Below are positions 48,646 to 56,492 of a stretch of DNA of 64,000 bases, piece after piece. Position numbers and translations under genes: made by a program. Every line of letters starts with the position of its first letter. Position 1 is the stretch's first letter. The stretch covers positions 25,822-89,821 of the forward strand of contig JBDRLL010000020.1 of the NCBI GenBank assembly GCA_043813075.1, in the 5' to 3' direction. The stretch comes from Candidatus Altiarchaeota archaeon. GTDB lineage: Archaea > Altiarchaeota > Altiarchaeia > IMC4 > SCGC-AAA252-I15. The notes under the pieces are model-generated. The model had not been told where the DNA came from, did no database searches, and was given only the letters and a program-made list of their open reading frames with translations.

Positions 48646-48708
48646 GTGGGGGAGGTATCGGAACCGTGGGTTCTGATGTGTCAGATCTCTCCTCCACCAA
48701 CCTTTTTT
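48646..48708 (+). terminator. Nested stem-loop followed by a T-tract
   Basis: GTGGGGGAGG/TCTCCTCCAC outer stem, ATCGGAACC-GTG-GGTTCTGAT inner stem, then AACCTTTTTT. Confidence 0.5.
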
Positions 48709-49996
48709 AGTTGTTTTTCTTGCAGCAGCAGAATCGATCTAATCCTCCATCGGTTTTCGGGCAGATTGCATTGCATTCACGCACATACTTGGAATCGTAC
48801 ATCCCGCATATGTAATGCATGTCAGCGCAGAAACCGGTGTCGTATCCGTTGGAAGTGCAGTATCCTGCAGGTGAGTAATCGAATGAAACCTCCTTCTTAA
48901 GGAGTGTTGTGGTTGTCTGTATCTTGGTTGTTGTTTCATCATTGTATCTAATCGTGAAGTAGTCTGAAAAATCCTTGTAATTGTCGTCCTCGACATTGTA
49001 ATCATAAATGCCCGGTCCCTCTGGAGTGAAAGAAACCTCTCCATTCTTATCAGTATATCCTACATAAACCTTTCTACCATCCTTATACACAGTGACCTTC
49101 GCCCCGTAGACTATCGCTCCCGTACCCCATTTCCGGCTAATCTTGATATTATAATCTCCTCCAGACGTTTTCCTGATGCCATGCATTACATGGACTTTAT
49201 TCTGGAATGACCCGCCGCCAATACCCCTAGTCTGCTGGACCGTCGTAGAAGTAGACGACGTAGTAGACGTGGTTGTGGTAGAGGTACTGGGGGTTATTGT
49301 GGTAGATGTGGTTGTGCTTGTTGTGGTTGTTGAAGTAGTGCTCGTTGTCGTTGTTGTGCTCGTGGTTGTTGTGCTTGTTGTGGTTGTTGAAGTAGTGCTC
49401 GTTGTCGTCGTAGTCTCTATTGTAACTGACGCGTCATCAAAGCATGTTCCATAAAAACCACCCCAATAGCCTGCATCTTCACCCCCAAATTCAAAGTAGG
49501 CGTAACGAACCCCGGTACCGTAGCCGCTAAAGGTATGATTTTTTTCAAGCCAAGTCATGGTTTCCTCGACACCCAAAGGCGATCCCTGGGTGCCGAGATT
49601 ATACGTCGCGATAGGGTTATTAGGATCATTGTCAGACCCAAGCAGGCTGTATCTCACATAGTATAGCCCCTCCATATCAAATCGTTCCGCCAGCCAGATA
49701 CTGAATGTAATGTCTGGCTGAGCATCTAACTCTTCCTCAGTATATCCTGCAGCCACCAGATTAACCGTTTGCTTGGATGTGGCCATCGAATAAGACGTCA
49801 TGAAGGAGTAACTCCCACTTCGTATTAAAGAAGCCCAGTCGAAATCCCAGCTCCCCGTCTGCGTCCACCCGGTCGCATCGTTTGTCTCAGCTCCAGGATT
49901 AGTTAATAAATTAGCCGACACGATAAGACACGTTGAGACTATGCTAAGGCCTATGAGAAGATAGAATATCCCTCGAACCACCAACCTCTTCCCCAT
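48707..49996 (-). CDS. Secreted protein: FBA (F-box-associated) lectin-like domain, Thr-rich linker, beta-sandwich, 8-Cys C-terminal domain
   Basis: NLLTNPGAE...FMTSY...KQTVNL..GY.EEELD.QP...W...HTFSGYGTGVRY..FE.GG.D..YWGGFYG matches the Fbs1/FBXO2 sugar-binding domain pattern. Confidence 0.8.
   Translation of the reverse strand: MGKRLVVRGIFYLLIGLSIVSTCLIVSANLLTNPGAETNDATGWTQTGSWDFDWASLIRSGSYSFMTSYSMATSKQTVNLVAAGYTEEELDAQPDITFSIWLAERFDMEGLYYVRYSLLGSDNDPNNPIATYNLGTQGSPLGVEETMTWLEKNHTFSGYGTGVRYAYFEFGGEDAGYWGGFYGTCFDDASVTIETTTTTSTTSTTTTSTTTTSTTTTTSTTSTTTTSTTTSTTITPSTSTTTTSTTSSTSTTVQQTRGIGGGSFQNKVHVMHGIRKTSGGDYNIKISRKWGTGAIVYGAKVTVYKDGRKVYVGYTDKNGEVSFTPEGPGIYDYNVEDDNYKDFSDYFTIRYNDETTTKIQTTTTLLKKEVSFDYSPAGYCTSNGYDTGFCADMHYICGMYDSKYVRECNAICPKTDGGLDRFCCCKKNN
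49240..49417 (-). repeat. Thr/Ser-rich low-complexity coding repeat
   Basis: GTGGTTGTTGAAGTAGTGCTCGTTGTCGT occurs twice; encodes the TTTTSTT linker. Confidence 0.8.
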
Positions 49997-50027
49997 ATCC
50001 AATTATGTGAGATAATAAATATTAATC

Positions 50028-50333: not shown

Positions 50334-50819
50334 TCACGGGTTCAGCGTCATTATGCTGTAGTTCAGTATCGTGGCGAAACTGACCCACAGGAGGTATGGT
50401 GTGAGGAGCAGTGATGCGGTCCTAGAAGTCTTCTTGAAGAGGATTATCGTCGCCAGTATGACTGCCCATAAGACCATTATCTCCGCGAGCGCTAGCGAGA
50501 TATCCCGCCAGCCGAAGAATATGATGGACCATAGGGAGTTCAACACCAGCTGAATCGCGAAGAGTATTAAACCCAACCTGTTCTCCCCGAAGCCATTGTT
50601 CTTCTTCCAGAATATGTAGAGCGACACTCCCATCATGACGTAGAGCATCGTCCAGACAGGTCCGAAAACCCAGTTCGGAGGGTTGAATGAAGGCTTCTCC
50701 AGGCCAGCATACCATGTTGGGATGGACTGCGTCGTGTAGTATGACCCGATGAAGCCTGCAGTAAGGCATAGTAGGACGCTCGCCACCAGCCTGAACGCAT
50801 CCAACTCCGTCTTGTTCAT
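50334..50819 (-). CDS. tspO: TspO/MBR family tryptophan-rich sensory protein
   Basis: WYAGLEKPSFNPPNWVFGPVWT.LY, LNSLWS..FF, PYLLWVSFA..LN. Confidence 0.95.
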   Translation of the reverse strand: MNKTELDAFRLVASVLLCLTAGFIGSYYTTQSIPTWYAGLEKPSFNPPNWVFGPVWTMLYVMMGVSLYIFWKKNNGFGENRLGLILFAIQLVLNSLWSIIFFGWRDISLALAEIMVLWAVILATIILFKKTSRTASLLLTPYLLWVSFATILNYSIMTLNP

Positions 50820-50897: not shown

Positions 50898-51776
50898 ATG
50901 AATGGGAACGCCATTTACCTGCCGCTGGCTCTTATCTCACTCATACTGCTCTCATCATCAGTGTCCTCCGACCAGGTCGACCCTGACTCTCCATTCGGCA
51001 AGTGCATGTCAGAGCACTGCTGGCCGGCGCAGAAGGCGTGTGCCGACAGCCTATGCAGTAAGCTTGTGTCAGGGTGTGCTGCCCCCTGCAATGACATGTA
51101 TACTACCGTTAATTCGCCGTGTGTTGCGATGTGCAGGGAAATCCAGGGTATGGAGAACATAGACTCCGGGCTTTACTGGAAGTCAACAGACTGTGCGACA
51201 GACTATGCGGGGAGCGTGGTCATGCGACTAAACTCCTGCATTACCTCGCACTCAAAAGAAAATGCATTCAGCATGAAAGACTGCGGCAGCGACGTCATCT
51301 CTAATAAGGCGCTGCGGGATAAATTCGATAAATGCCTGAAGGAATGGGGGGAGGACGCTACAAAGGACGTCAAGCCAGAGGAGGCCCATGCAGTGGTCTT
51401 CGGCAGGGTTCGGGGCGAAGCGTACATCCAGAAGAACGGGTCCGGGGATTGGGTGAAGGTCACGAGACACACGAAATTTGTCGCCGGAGACCGCCTGAAA
51501 ACAGGCTCCGGGCACAAGCTGTGGCTGAGGATACTGCGTAACCCCCAGGACATTGAGGCAGTCATCGGCCAGCAGTATCTCGGTGAGAACTCGGAAATCG
51601 AGTTCACTGAAACTGGTGTGACGGTACTTAAAGGCGAATATCGTACCAACTACTGGTATATGCCCGAATCCTATCTGAGGAAGACGCCCCAGATCGTGGA
51701 GATGGAGTTCAGGATGAAGAATGGTGGGATACAATACGAGGTCAAGCCAATAATGGTGGGGGGCGTTAGGGGATGA
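50898..51776 (+). CDS. Secreted protein: 12-Cys domain plus the N-terminal half of a FecR-like domain ending in GVRG
   Basis: Signal peptide; Cys-rich aa 36-146; VRGEAYIQ...W...GDRLKTG...LGENSEIEF...GVRG-stop. Confidence 0.7.
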   Translation: MNGNAIYLPLALISLILLSSSVSSDQVDPDSPFGKCMSEHCWPAQKACADSLCSKLVSGCAAPCNDMYTTVNSPCVAMCREIQGMENIDSGLYWKSTDCATDYAGSVVMRLNSCITSHSKENAFSMKDCGSDVISNKALRDKFDKCLKEWGEDATKDVKPEEAHAVVFGRVRGEAYIQKNGSGDWVKVTRHTKFVAGDRLKTGSGHKLWLRILRNPQDIEAVIGQQYLGENSEIEFTETGVTVLKGEYRTNYWYMPESYLRKTPQIVEMEFRMKNGGIQYEVKPIMVGGVRG

Positions 51777-52141
51777 ATTCTATCTGGAAGACCGCCGGAA
51801 TATTGATCATACTCTTGTCGGCATCAGAGACTGTTCTTTCCCAAGAAAAATTACAGGCCACCCACAGTATTGTCGTCAAAGTTGATGATAGTCAGTCCAC
51901 GATATACGTCCTCAAAGGATCATACGAAGTCACTTCCGGTGGAAAACAGGTAGATGTCCTGTATGAGGGTGATAAGTGGACTTCATACGCTGTTGGGAGG
52001 CCTCCAGTCAAGACTAGGATGGCTCCAGAAGAGGCGAGTGTTGTTTCAGAAGGCTTCAATGATGAATCTAAATCTTCCTGCTGTTGCATTCCCGCCATAC
52101 CCCTGATTTTATCCCTTCTCGTCGCGGTGATAGCCCGGTAG
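51773..52141 (+). CDS. Secreted protein: C-terminal half of a FecR-like domain plus a CCC-hydrophobic C-terminal anchor
   Basis: Own signal peptide, then THSIVVKV..STIYVLKGSYEV...VLYEG; tail SSCCCIPAIPLILSLLVAVIAR; ATGA-coupled to the upstream gene. Confidence 0.65.
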   Translation: MNSIWKTAGILIILLSASETVLSQEKLQATHSIVVKVDDSQSTIYVLKGSYEVTSGGKQVDVLYEGDKWTSYAVGRPPVKTRMAPEEASVVSEGFNDESKSSCCCIPAIPLILSLLVAVIAR

Positions 52142-52193: not shown

Positions 52194-53267
52194 ATGAAGG
52201 CTTTTCTCGCGTTGGAGGACGGGACGCTCATGGAGGGCAGGGCGTTCGGTTCAGACAGGCTTGCTGAAGGAGAACTGGTGTTCAACACTTCGATGACCGG
52301 TTATGTCGAGGCTCTGACAGACCCGAGTTACGCTGGACAGATACTCATGATGACGTACCCCCTGGTTGGTAATTACGGCGTCTGCCGCGACGACTTTGAG
52401 AGCGACGGCGTGAAGGCTGAGGGTTTCGTTGTCAGGGAACTCTGTGATAAGCCGAGCAACTGGCGGAGCCATATGAGCCTGGACGAGCTGCTCAAGGAAT
52501 ATGATATTGCCGGGATACAGGGCATTGACACCCGCGCTTTGACGAGGAAGACAAGGGACCAGGGTGCGTTGAAGGCGGTCATAGGCGTGGGCGACCCAGA
52601 CCCGGGGGAACTCATATCAAAAGCAGTCAGCCAGACTCCAATAACAGAAGTCGACGTAGTCGACATGGTCTGCGTCAGAAAGCCGGAGAAGATCGGGACC
52701 TCAGGGAAATACGATGTCGTCCTCATAGACTGCGGCTTGAAAAAGAGCATAGCACGCCATCTAACAGACTCCGGCGTGAACGTCACACTAGTCCCATACG
52801 ATTACCCTGCCGAAAAGATACTGGCAATGGAGCCGGACGGCGTGTTCGTGTCCAACGGGCCCGGAGACCCTGTCAGAGTCAAGCCAACGATAGAAACCAT
52901 CAAGTCTCTCGCCGGGAGACTGCCGATAGCGGGCATATGCCTCGGCCATCAGCTGATGGCGCTCGCGATGGGTGCAGACACGTTCAAGCTCAAGTTCGGG
53001 CATCGTGGCTCCAACCAGCCGGTCAAGGACTTCGAGACTGGGAGGGTGTTCATATCCTCCCAGAACCACGGGTTCGCTGTCGACGAGGATTCCATGCCAG
53101 ATGGGCTGGAGGTAACGCAAGTCAACCTTAACGACCATACTGTTGAAGGTATGCGGCACGCAGACATGCCTTACATTAGCGTCCAGTATCATCCCGAGGC
53201 TTCACCAGGGCCGCACGACACGTTCTTCTTCTTCGACAGCATCATCAGGATGATGGGGGGTCAGTGA
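52194..53267 (+). CDS. carA: Carbamoyl-phosphate synthase small subunit
   Basis: GELVFNTSMTGY, LTDPSY, SNGPGDP, GICLGHQ, SQNHGF, QYHPEASPGP. Confidence 0.98.
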   Translation: MKAFLALEDGTLMEGRAFGSDRLAEGELVFNTSMTGYVEALTDPSYAGQILMMTYPLVGNYGVCRDDFESDGVKAEGFVVRELCDKPSNWRSHMSLDELLKEYDIAGIQGIDTRALTRKTRDQGALKAVIGVGDPDPGELISKAVSQTPITEVDVVDMVCVRKPEKIGTSGKYDVVLIDCGLKKSIARHLTDSGVNVTLVPYDYPAEKILAMEPDGVFVSNGPGDPVRVKPTIETIKSLAGRLPIAGICLGHQLMALAMGADTFKLKFGHRGSNQPVKDFETGRVFISSQNHGFAVDEDSMPDGLEVTQVNLNDHTVEGMRHADMPYISVQYHPEASPGPHDTFFFFDSIIRMMGGQ

Positions 53268-56200
53268 ATGCCCAAGAGGACTGACTTGAGGAAGATAATG
53301 ATTATCGGTTCCGGGCCCATAATAATCGGGCAGGCCGCGGAGTTCGACTACTCCGGCAGCCAGGCGTGCAAGGCATTGAGGGATGAGGGATATGAGGTGG
53401 TGCTCGTCAACTCCAATCCCGCCACCATCATGACAGACCCGGAGATGGCTGACCGCACTTACGTGGAGCCGTTGACTGTGGAGTCGCTCTCAAGGATAAT
53501 AGCGTGCGAGAAGCCTGACGCGATACTCCCAACGCTCGGCGGGCAGACTGCCCTAAACCTGGCCATACAGTTGGGTGACTCCGGGGTTTTGGACGAGCAT
53601 GGCGTGGAACTGATAGGTGCTAGCCTCGAAGCCATAAAGAAGGCTGAAGACAGGGAGCTTTTCAAGGCCGCGATGCAGAAGATAGGTCTGGAGGTCCCCA
53701 AGAGTGGTGTAGCCCACAACGTTGACGATGCATTACGGATAGTTGAGGAGATAGGATATCCGATAGTGGCACGTCCCGCATTCACTCTCGGAGGCACCGG
53801 CGGTGGCATAGCGTACAATCAGGAAGAGCTTATCGAGGTTGTAAAGAATGGCCTAAGCCTCTCAATGATAGGTCAGGTCCTCCTGGAGGAGGGTCTCGTA
53901 GGGTGGAAGGAGTTTGAGTACGAGGTCATGCGGGATGCCGCGGATAATGTCGTCATAATATGCTCTATAGAGAACTTCGATCCCATGGGAATACACACCG
54001 GGGATAGTATAACAGTCGCGCCAGCCCAGACGTTGACTGACGTGGAGTATCAGCGTCTCAGGGATGCTTCCATAGCAGTCATCCGCGAGATCGGTGTTGA
54101 CACCGGAGGCTCCAACATACAGTTCGCACTCCACCCCCGCTCGGACAGGCTTGTCGTGATAGAGATGAACCCCCGGGTCAGCAGGTCATCCTCTCTCGCT
54201 TCGAAGGCCACAGGCTTTCCGATAGCGAAGATAGCTGCAAAACTTGCTGTAGGCTACACTCTAGATGAGATTCCTAACGACATAACACGTGAGACTCCCT
54301 CGAGTTTCGAGCCTACCATAGATTATGTCGTCGTGAAGTTCCCACGGTTCGCTTTCGACAAGTTCCCTAAGGCAGATGCGAGGCTGGTAACCCAGATGAA
54401 GAGCGTCGGGGAAGTCATGTCAATCGGCAGGACCTTCGAGGAGTCTTTGCAGAAGGCTTTGAGGTCTCTTGAGGTAAAGCGTTTCGGATTGGCTGAAGGC
54501 AAGGAAAACTCCTTCAGTGTTGAGGCATCTCTGCAGGCGCTTGAGAAAGCCACTCCCGACAGGGTCTTCCACATGTACCATGCCCTCAGGGCGGGCGTCT
54601 CAGTAGAGAAGATAAACTCCATGACTGGCATAGACCCCTGGTTCATATGGAAGATAAGGAACATAATCGATGTCGAGGAGGAATTACTCAAGACTTCAAA
54701 GCACACTGCAATCGACGCACTGGATGCGGGCATACTACGGCACTCCAAGCAGGCTGGTTTCTCAGACCATCAGCTGGCATCCATCTTCAACTCAACAGAT
54801 AGGCGGGTTAGGGAGGTCAGGAAGAACGCTGGAGTCAACGCGGTATACAAGATGGTGGACACGTGCGCTGCAGAATTCGACGCTAAAACACCCTACTACT
54901 ACTCAACCTACGAGGATGAGAATGATTCAACAGCAACCGACCGCAAGAAGGTGATAGTCATCGGCTCCGGCCCAAACCGGATAGGTCAGGGAGTAGAGTT
55001 CGACTACTGTTGCGTGCACGCCGTCTTGAGCCTTAAGGAACAGGGGTACGAGGCCATAATGGTGAACAACAATCCTGAGACTGTTTCAACAGACTATGAT
55101 ACGTCAGACCGCCTGTATTTCGAGCCGATAACCGTTGAAGACGTGTTGAACATATGCGAGAACGAGAAGCCTGAGGGTGTCATAGTGCAATTTGGCGGGC
55201 AGACGCCACTCAACATAGCGGAAGAGATAAGCGAGCAGGGCGTGCGGATACTCGGCACTAGTCCTGAGAGCATAAATAAGGCTGAGGACAGGAAGCTATT
55301 CAACGAGATAATACGGGAAGTCGGCATACCACAGCCGGAAGGCACGACAGTCACTTCTGTTGGAGAGGCTATGGAGGCTGCGGAGGTCATAGGCTACCCT
55401 CTCATGGTTCGTCCGTCGTTTGTGCTGGGCGGGAGGGGCATGGCGATAATATATGATGAGTCGATGCTTTTAGGATACGCTAAGACTGCTGTTGAAGTGA
55501 CTCCAGAGCATCCCATGCTTATGGACAAGTTCCTGGATGACGCGTTAGAGGTGGAAGTTGACGCCGTCTGCGATGGTGAAGACGTCTACATCGCCGCGAT
55601 AATGGAGCACATAGAACTCGCAGGCATACACTCAGGCGACAGTGCGTGTGTCATACCCTCCCGCAGCATATCCCCGGAGAACATACTTCTCATTGAAGAC
55701 TATACGCGTCAGCTGGCGTTGAAGCTTGACGTCGTCGGATTGATGAACGTCCAATACGCGATACACGACGACACAGTCTACATACTGGAGGCCAATCCCC
55801 GTGCGTCCAGGACAGTCCCGTATGTGAGCAAGGTCACGGGCGTGCCGATAGCGAAGATGGCGACCAAGGTGATAATGGGCGCGAAACTCAGGGATCTGGT
55901 GGACTTTAGGAAGATGGGTTTACGATATCATGCTGTCAAGGAGGCTGTGTTCTCATTCGACAAATTCCCTGATGTTGACCCAGTGTTAGGGCCTGAAATG
56001 AAGTCCACTGGAGAAGTCATGGGCATAGACGAGTCTTTCGGGCTCGCATTCTACAAGGCGCTGGTCGCGTCAGGCAACAGGATACCCCTGGAAGGTACCG
56101 TACTTTTCTCCATAGCAGACAGGGATAAGAAGAAGATGCTGGACGTCGCCAGGAGGATGAGGTCTCTGGGATACGACATAACCGCCACCCGGGGGACTAA

Positions 56201-56492
56201 AGACTATTTCGAGGAAAACGGTGTTGAATGCGGCCTAGCCAACAAGATACACAATTCCCGGCCCAACATCATCGACGACATGGTGAACAACAAGCTGCAG
56301 ATGGTGGTCAACACTCCTACCGGGCGCAGGGGGCGTGGTGATTCGAGCAGCATACGCAGGACCGCCATACGGCTGAGGATACCGTACATAACGACAACCG
56401 CCGCTGCAGTTGCCGCGGTTGAAGGTCTTGAGGCGTTGAAGGCTTCTGAACTACACGTCAAGCCCATACAAGACTACCATTCTGGCTTATGA
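53268..56492 (+). CDS. carB: Carbamoyl-phosphate synthase large subunit
   Basis: [51 protein letters not shown]-terminal MGS domain. Confidence 0.98.

Follow-up and report, generated by a model that had tools for sequence, protein, structure and literature searches.

Introduction

Characterized FecR-type β domains sever their own chain at a single Gly-Thr bond, and a pair of overlapping genes in an archaeal genome raises the question of whether a gene boundary can take the place of that cut. The pair, here called ORF1 and ORF2 (open reading frames 1 and 2), lies in a 64 000-nucleotide stretch (the window) of contig JBDRLL010000020.1 (C20) from a Candidatus Altiarchaeota archaeon (GCA_043813075.1), a metagenome-assembled genome (MAG) of 1.8 Mb in 41 contigs that is 89% complete. 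Escherichia coli FecR cleaves itself at G181|T182 and its halves stay associated, having folded in the cytoplasm and been exported together by the Tat pathway (PMC12036975). Pseudomonas FoxR is cut between Gly191 and Thr192 through an N–O acyl shift (PMC12036975, PMC9249621). The authors of the former paper set self-cleavage against ‘encoding them at separate loci’ (PMC12036975). The literature searched gave no account of a FecR domain split in nature.

ORF1 ends on the Gly and ORF2 resumes, behind a leader of its own, at the Thr of this bond. Gene fission at the autocleavage site is the most likely account of the locus, and the reading that we favour, a genuine fission followed by functional complementation of the two products, is given a probability of roughly 0.55. 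A preliminary description of the window, made from the nucleotide sequence alone, had reported the split and had built on it a two-part surface-display system; its observation holds, and its interpretation finds partial support. The coincidence of the gene boundary with the FecR bond, in halves that would be exported separately, makes folding in trans after export directly testable.

Two coupled reading frames

ORF1 (window positions 50898–51776, plus strand) encodes 292 amino acids followed by a stop codon and has no in-frame ATG, GTG or TTG upstream. ORF2 (51773–52141, plus strand) encodes 122 amino acids and a stop codon. The two meet on the same strand in an ATGA overlap (51773–51776), in which the ATG of ORF2 shares bases with the TGA of ORF1; a four-nucleotide overlap is the commonest same-strand spacing of open reading frames in this genome (113 pairs, compared with 50 in the next class).

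ORF1 opens with a signal-peptide-like leader (residues 1–24, 50898–50969; MNGNAIYLPLALISLILLSSSVSS) that has a strong hydrophobic core and an n-region devoid of positive charge, and it fails our signal-peptide heuristic solely through this missing charge. The leader precedes a Cys-rich module (50970–51362) with 12 cysteines between residues 36 and 146, which is predicted to be helical in a low-confidence model. The remainder is a β region (residues 164–292, 51387–51773) that is collinear with the part of FecR-type domains preceding the Gly-Thr bond and whose last residue is Gly; the chain closes with ...YEVKPIMVGGVRG (MVGGVRG-stop).

The N-terminus of ORF2 reads MNSIWKTAGILIILLSASETVLS-QEKLQA-THSIVVKVDDSQSTIYVLKGSYEV. 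Its signal-peptide-like leader (residues 1–23, 51773–51841) contains Lys6, a hydrophobic core and TVLS followed by QE, and has no counterpart in the intact relatives (alignment A6). The six residues QEKLQA (51842–51859) would separate the likely signal-peptidase site, as judged from sequence, from Thr30, after which the chain continues T30-HSIVVKVDDSQSTIYVLKGSYEV... (T30-HSIVVKVDD...). Residues 30–75 (51860–51997) correspond to the FecR-type strands that follow the Gly-Thr bond; a linker then leads to a C-terminal anchor (52079–52138) made up of CCC-IPAIP, a hydrophobic helix and an Arg (CCCIPAIPLILSLLVAVIAR). Thus far the frames read as the preliminary description had them, including the 12-Cys domain, the GVRG end, the ATGA coupling and the second leader with its QEKLQA.

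Signal-peptide calls were made with a heuristic of our own rather than a dedicated predictor. ORF2 passes it, as do 125 of 1280 long-ORF N-termini, 67 of 20 000 random peptides, 122 of 11 571 internal Met windows and 102 of 7040 genomic ATG-open windows. The ORF2 leader also resembles that of a 639-amino-acid open frame on contig C19, which is probably a secreted protein (TVLSQE and TVISQE, respectively; tblastn E = 0.15). A common origin of the ORF1 and ORF2 signal peptides was considered and rejected: the leader DNA scores 11, a value reached by 57 of 1000 shuffles.

Relationship of the two halves to the FecR family

The FecR-type character of ORF2 is confirmed by sequence comparison. Against a profile of five intact relatives ORF2 scores 26.6 bits (E = 8.8e-7), with the match starting at profile position 113, two residues past the family Gly-Thr, and hhalign gives E = 1.5e-5 against alignment A1 and 8.9e-4 against alignment A5; BLASTP, hhalign and the hidden Markov model (HMM) all place residues 30–75 in the part of the domain after the bond. 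Among 1.84 billion representatives ORF2 has one match other than itself, P0002 (E = 2.5e-4), which is a genuine member of the FecR family (Pfam E = 1e-14, 55.2 bits) and to which it aligns from just past RGT through the C-terminus (BLASTP 3e-13). P0002 reads ...GTVGIRGTTFVFHVDETQSTVKVIEG... internally and CCCMPALPMMLSLLAAAITKIL at its C-terminus, with CCC-MPALP in the anchor. The structure neighbours of ORF2 in the ESM Atlas are FecR clusters, at a level below the naming bar.

That the β region of ORF1 is the front of a FecR-type domain is weakly confirmed, again by sequence comparison. In hhalign, residues 164–292 match an alignment of 29 relatives with E = 0.0046 over 79 collinear columns within columns 24–110 of A5, a weak match, and the E value against the five-sequence alignment is only 0.22. 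The collinear motifs occur in the family order: a G-x-V start, GD-x-x-K-TG, LGENSEIEF and TVLKG. By eye, the end of ORF1, ...RMKNGGIQYEVKPIMVGGVRG, parallels ...KKMIKDGTMEVEMNQAVAGIKG of the relatives, the strands leading to the family Gly; ORF1 carries an insertion of about 20 residues ahead of this segment. The ESM Atlas returns FecR for 27 of 30 feature neighbours of ORF1 (score 0.90), but on just 150–162 shared features. The low-confidence Atlas model of ORF1 (pLDDT about 0.5) superposes on FecR clusters with TM scores of 0.66–0.71, which we take as a lead only; Atlas TM scores for ORF1 and ORF2 overall are 0.66–0.74. A single-sequence AlphaFold model of ORF1 reached a pLDDT of 47 and was too poor for use.

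Position of the break

The Gly-Thr pair is invariant in all 29 aligned relatives, and G181-T182 of E. coli K-12 FecR aligns on it (hhalign E = 0.0014; Pfam coordinates agree). When the two halves are placed with hmmalign, ORF1 residues M286..G292 occupy profile positions 105–111 (consensus A-V-A-G-I-K-G), with G292 on Gly111, and T30 of ORF2 falls on Thr112. The claim that the break lies at the Gly|Thr of the family is therefore upheld, and the self-cleavage and association of halves to which it was tied are in print for FecR and FoxR (PMC12036975, PMC9249621).

Concatenation had been suggested as a further check. Against the five-relative profile, ORF2 alone gives 26.6 bits; joining the halves at Gly/Thr gives 32.7 bits, keeping QEKLQA in the join gives 24.2 bits and reversing the order gives 23.5 bits. 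The join thus improves the match, but the gain of 6.1 bits comes from the last seven residues of ORF1 only.

Intact relatives and the paralog in the same genome

Relatives were gathered from the class (five), from genome contigs (31 loci spanning Altiarchaeota, Bathyarchaeia, candidate phyla radiation (CPR) bacteria, Chloroflexota, Bacillota and others) and from metagenome contigs (42 loci); the FecR search by class covered the same 61 genomes as the search by phylum. They share a one-protein order of roughly 385 residues: signal peptide, variable N-terminal domain, FecR domain and C-terminal anchor. In L069 the Gly of Gly-Thr is replaced by Ala, and the frame is still continuous.

Contig C36 of the genome carries an unsplit paralog (L002 703–1827, 374 amino acids). 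A signal peptide and an N-terminal domain precede its FecR domain (35.8 bits), which reads ...GGVLGTQF... at the Gly-Thr, and a linker and the anchor CFCIPALPMILTLL follow. In the predicted structure of the paralog (pLDDT 80) the Gly-Thr pair lies within the strand formed by residues 95–108, and the model matches the periplasmic domains of BDI_1681 (4m0n/4m0h) and PupR (6ovk) with E values of 2e-7 to 2.5e-6 and TM scores of 0.53–0.55. ORF2, the paralog (about 1753–1824 of L002) and P0002 have in common the signature C-x-C-[IM]PA[IL]P with a short hydrophobic helix and a basic terminus after it, and within the genome the signature occurs in no open reading frame other than ORF2 and the paralog. 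From its sequence this C-terminus looks like a sorting or lipidation signal; a Pfam search of the 89%-complete genome, however, gave no Exosortase_EpsH match, and none of the NCBIfam CTERM models matches ORF2.

The claim that ORF1 and ORF2 are the two halves of one FecR-type domain thus stands on the side of architecture, the equivalent region being a single protein in the paralog, which Pfam FecR recognizes, and in the fetched relatives; it is held back by the weak match of ORF1.

Weighing the fission against the alternatives

A number of observations weigh against the favoured reading; they are collected here together with the explanations to which they lend themselves. The preliminary description had proposed running the Pfam FecR model on the proteins, and PF04773 finds neither ORF1 nor ORF2 at E ≤ 10; with its gathering score of 24 bits, the paralog (35.8 bits), P0002 (55.2 bits) and E. 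coli FecR (63.4 bits) pass as controls. A six-frame FecR search of the genome recovered only the C36 paralog. ORF1 alone gave no hmmsearch match to the five-relative profile at E ≤ 100, and its assignment consequently depends on weak profile–profile and language-model evidence. Neither DUF4880 nor FecR_C matches ORF1 or ORF2, and a search of Protein Data Bank sequences with the A1 profile gave nothing at E ≤ 1. Judged by these sequence scores, the pair is a sub-threshold relative of Pfam FecR.

ORF1 and ORF2 could be read as two independent proteins, ORF1 being complete with a shortened FecR-like or DUF7354-like domain and ORF2 a separate small anchored β protein, co-transcribed without complementation. 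The best Pfam match of ORF1 is DUF7354 (PF24045; 18.4 bits, E = 0.0019), below the gathering score of 31.4 bits; in the 61 genomes of the class every match to this model stays below the cut-off, and the model likewise gives a weak match to a genuine FecR protein (from G033). The Atlas aligned ORF1 residues 160–285 to the whole of a 149-amino-acid FecR-domain protein (TM 0.67/0.60). Moreover, two related genomes, G007 (L005 1321–2028, minus strand, 235 amino acids) and G018 (L007 826–1785, minus strand), encode secreted proteins whose FecR-type region comprises just its first ~70 columns and lacks the Gly-Thr part. These proteins cover columns 21/28–91/97 once or twice (hhalign E = 1.9e-6 and 8.6e-5), and no ORF2-like partner was found in either genome in a search at E ≤ 1, so that a truncated domain may stand alone. 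A search for such partners in G001, G005, G007, G013 and G018 yielded only weak matches in the anchor region (E = 0.046 and 0.149). ORF1, however, extends past the point at which the G007 and G018 proteins stop aligning, and its end matches the strands that precede the family Gly; ORF2 supplies exactly the next part, together with an anchor motif otherwise confined to intact FecR proteins, and the two are coupled through ATGA. We therefore regard independence of the two proteins as improbable.

Decay of a formerly intact gene is a somewhat stronger contender, although still an unlikely one. Here an insertion or local duplication with a change of frame would have left ORF1 as a remnant and ORF2 as an unexpressed or useless frame whose leader-like start is fortuitous. 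The split pair is a singleton: no ortholog was found in 60 related genomes, in a word-based protein search or in metagenome contigs. The word-based search with ORF1 gave zero matches, and the comparison of ORF1 with metagenome contigs gave 73 pattern matches and no relatives; with P0002 as query the same word-based search returned P0002 alone, and with alignment A6 of the part after the Thr it returned nothing beyond ORF2 and P0003, a 94-amino-acid fragment that starts in mid-domain. Every one of the 73 fetched relatives is continuous in frame across Gly-Thr, which leaves the split without precedent. The locus is not syntenic in a genome of the same genus (G001), which has a different gene upstream of carA. 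Several near-invariant residues of the family are altered in ORF2 (K45, E48, V51 and W95 of alignment A6). A 23-nucleotide segment inside ORF1 (51666–51688) is nearly repeated 109 nucleotides downstream at 51775–51796, at the start of ORF2 and over its first eight codons; the likeness scores 25, a value reached by five of 2000 shuffles and by none of 161 window tiles. This near-repeat is possibly the trace of a local duplication that created the new start, and such events can equally destroy genes. Broken relatives do exist: L082 (metagenome contig, 456–2058) has the same architecture in three frames, probably because it is a pseudogene or because the sequence contains errors.

What makes decay the less attractive account is the precision that it demands. 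A random break would have to strike the one self-cleavage bond and also create an ATG overlapping the new stop codon, and a leader match turns up in just 0.3–1.4% of random or genomic windows. Both frames are open without further breaks, though they have diverged strongly from every relative and beyond the reach of Pfam. L082 itself illustrates ordinary decay, with breaks away from Gly-Thr and no new leader.

An assembly or sequencing artefact, in the form of a chimeric join or a cluster of errors, would be suspected from the nature of the source, a MAG of incomplete and fragmented sequence. Public runs amounted to three DNA runs from one groundwater study, with no RNA run among them; in the sole run with matching words, groundwater reads matched at 90% likeness assembled into one 277-nucleotide contig of depth 2 that covers 51300–51506 and ends short of the junction. 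The sequence itself argues in the other direction. In the ORF1 frame a second stop lies 27 nucleotides downstream of the first one, in the ORF2 frame a TAG sits two codons upstream of the ATG and the insertion relative to intact relatives amounts to 29 codons (87 extra nucleotides), so that no single insertion, deletion or sequencing error fuses the frames. Both flanks show the same rare architecture and together make exactly one copy, and about 51 kb of the 89.8-kb contig precede the junction. An artefact is thus the least probable of the explanations considered. Programmed −1 frameshifting was likewise rejected as a source of a fused product, a slip on GGGGGGC meeting the ORF2-frame TAG just upstream of the ATG and terminating immediately.

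Two further difficulties bear on the complementation part of the favoured reading. The alignment leaves one extra residue after T30 and six between the likely signal-peptidase cut and T30, both of which the strand junction would have to tolerate. The halves of E. coli FecR, furthermore, fold together before Tat export, whereas the partners here would have to meet after separate export. Prediction of a complex between ORF1 residues 164–292 and ORF2 residues 24–100 (A2, A3) gave scores of 0.73, 0.73 and 0.76, and controls with the partner replaced gave 0.02 and 0.01; a control in which chain 1 was replaced still reached 0.57, so the score is non-specific and is weighed neither for nor against binding.

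Proposed course of the fission and its consequences

If genuine fission is taken as the working model, the ancestor would have been a single gene encoding a signal peptide, a variable N-terminal module, a FecR-type β domain, a linker and a C-terminal membrane anchor. This gene would have been split inside the β domain at the conserved Gly-Thr, leaving ORF1 to end on Gly, while ORF2 became translationally coupled through ATGA and gained a 29-residue Sec-like leader ahead of the Thr. Both products, if expressed, would be exported separately and unfolded, their leaders being Sec-like without a twin arginine, and ORF2 would be held in the membrane by its C-terminal helix. Outside the cell, the four or so strands of ORF2 would complete the partial β domain of ORF1, and the Cys-rich module would in this way be displayed on the surface without a covalent link, the same end state that FecR attains by self-cleavage. 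The suggestion that other secreted proteins ending in GVRG could dock on the same anchor was not borne out: the genome has 3591 open reading frames of at least 80 amino acids that start with Met, of which 18 end in [VIT][RLK]G, and among these ORF1 alone combines GVRG with a strongly hydrophobic N-terminus.

The arrangement has both likenesses to and differences from the well characterized members of the family. A FecR-type β domain is shared with E. coli FecR and Pseudomonas FoxR, as seen for the intact paralog and the relatives in the match of the paralog model to PupR and BDI_1681, and the invariant Gly-Thr of the subfamily is equivalent to G181-T182. The bound two-product state described for FecR (PMC12036975) is what a two-gene arrangement would yield directly. 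Unlike E. coli FecR, which has both DUF4880 and FecR_C, ORF1 and ORF2 have neither; their topology is the reverse of that of FecR and FoxR, with an N-terminal signal peptide and a C-terminal anchor; the break is genetic rather than chemical; and the Sec-like leaders contrast with the cytoplasmic folding and Tat export of the FecR halves. To our knowledge archaea possess neither sigma factors nor TonB receptors, in which respect the hosts of FecR and FoxR differ. With no DUF4880 or FecR_C, a reversed topology and an archaeal host, ORF1 and ORF2 do not belong to the anti-sigma family of cell-surface signalling.

Closer in organization are the uncharacterized proteins of the type ‘signal peptide – variable domain – FecR – C-terminal transmembrane (TM) helix’ (L017–L047, L053–L094 and L002) of Altiarchaeota, Bathyarchaeia, CPR bacteria, Chloroflexota and Bacillota, which have the same order of parts. 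From the Thr to the C-terminus ORF2 counts 93 amino acids, and the relatives with a complete frame mostly 100–170. These relatives are single polypeptides across the Gly-Thr, whereas ORF1 and ORF2 are split and far more diverged; the intact proteins may also cut themselves at this bond. In SEA and GAIN/GPS domains, a β domain keeps two chains joined non-covalently after a cut in one of its strands or hairpins. The periplasmic domain of RsgI is reported to be an autoproteolytic tether that keeps the cleaved strand in its fold (PMC10328401). The concept is alike in these three cases, but the folds and chemistry are unrelated to those of FecR and no homology is claimed. Gene fission has produced complementary fragments that reassemble in split inteins and split membrane proteins; there the pieces come together in the cytoplasm or within the membrane, whereas ORF1 and ORF2 would first be exported.

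More speculatively, many uncultured archaea and bacteria may use the FecR-type Gly-Thr domain as a snap fastener that cuts itself and holds non-covalently, of which the present locus would be a version split into two genes, exported through Sec and closed outside the cell by β-strand complementation. We hold this wider proposal only tentatively; were it true, the two proteins would form a docking pair from a naturally split domain, and synthesis as one chain would not be a requirement of the fold. Should the halves fold in trans, the pair would constitute a small natural extracellular docking module, and the widespread uncharacterized proteins of the ‘variable domain – FecR – anchor’ type in archaea and CPR bacteria could be understood as surface proteins with a non-covalent tether. 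If the halves cannot reassemble, the locus would be an example of a pseudogene that mimics design.

The Cys-rich module, cytoplasmic tails and neighbouring genes

The Cys-rich module of ORF1 (50970–51160) also heads a 967-amino-acid open frame in G013 (L003, contig C9), with 47% identity over ORF1 residues 13–87. Beyond this common module the body of the G013 frame is quite unlike ORF1, the module being a shuffled cassette. In the G018 protein (L007) a related Cys-rich piece precedes two repeats that resemble the front of FecR.

Among the intact relatives, a zinc-ribbon-like tail of the form C-x-x-C...C-x-x-C lies past the C-terminal TM helix, on the cytoplasmic side, in the bacterial loci L026, L027, L030, L033, L035 and L040 and in the archaeal L011 (G022). 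These tails suggest, on the strength of their sequence, that some of these ‘surface’ proteins may signal across the membrane.

Scans of the locus for sigma-70 promoters and terminators gave no match, such models not being applicable to archaea. Upstream of ORF1 lies an ordinary gene for a TspO/MBR family protein (50334–50819, minus strand; E = 2.7e-53), and downstream (52194–56492, plus strand) lie open reading frames that resemble carA and carB, names taken from reading the translations only. Further upstream, an open frame of 431 amino acids (48707–50002, minus strand) combines a hydrophobic N-terminal segment with an F-box-associated (FBA, PF04300) domain (E = 7.4e-27), a long Thr/Ser-rich linker and a Cys-rich C-terminus. 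The FBA family is chiefly familiar from eukaryotic glycan-binding F-box proteins, and the frame is unusual for an archaeon.

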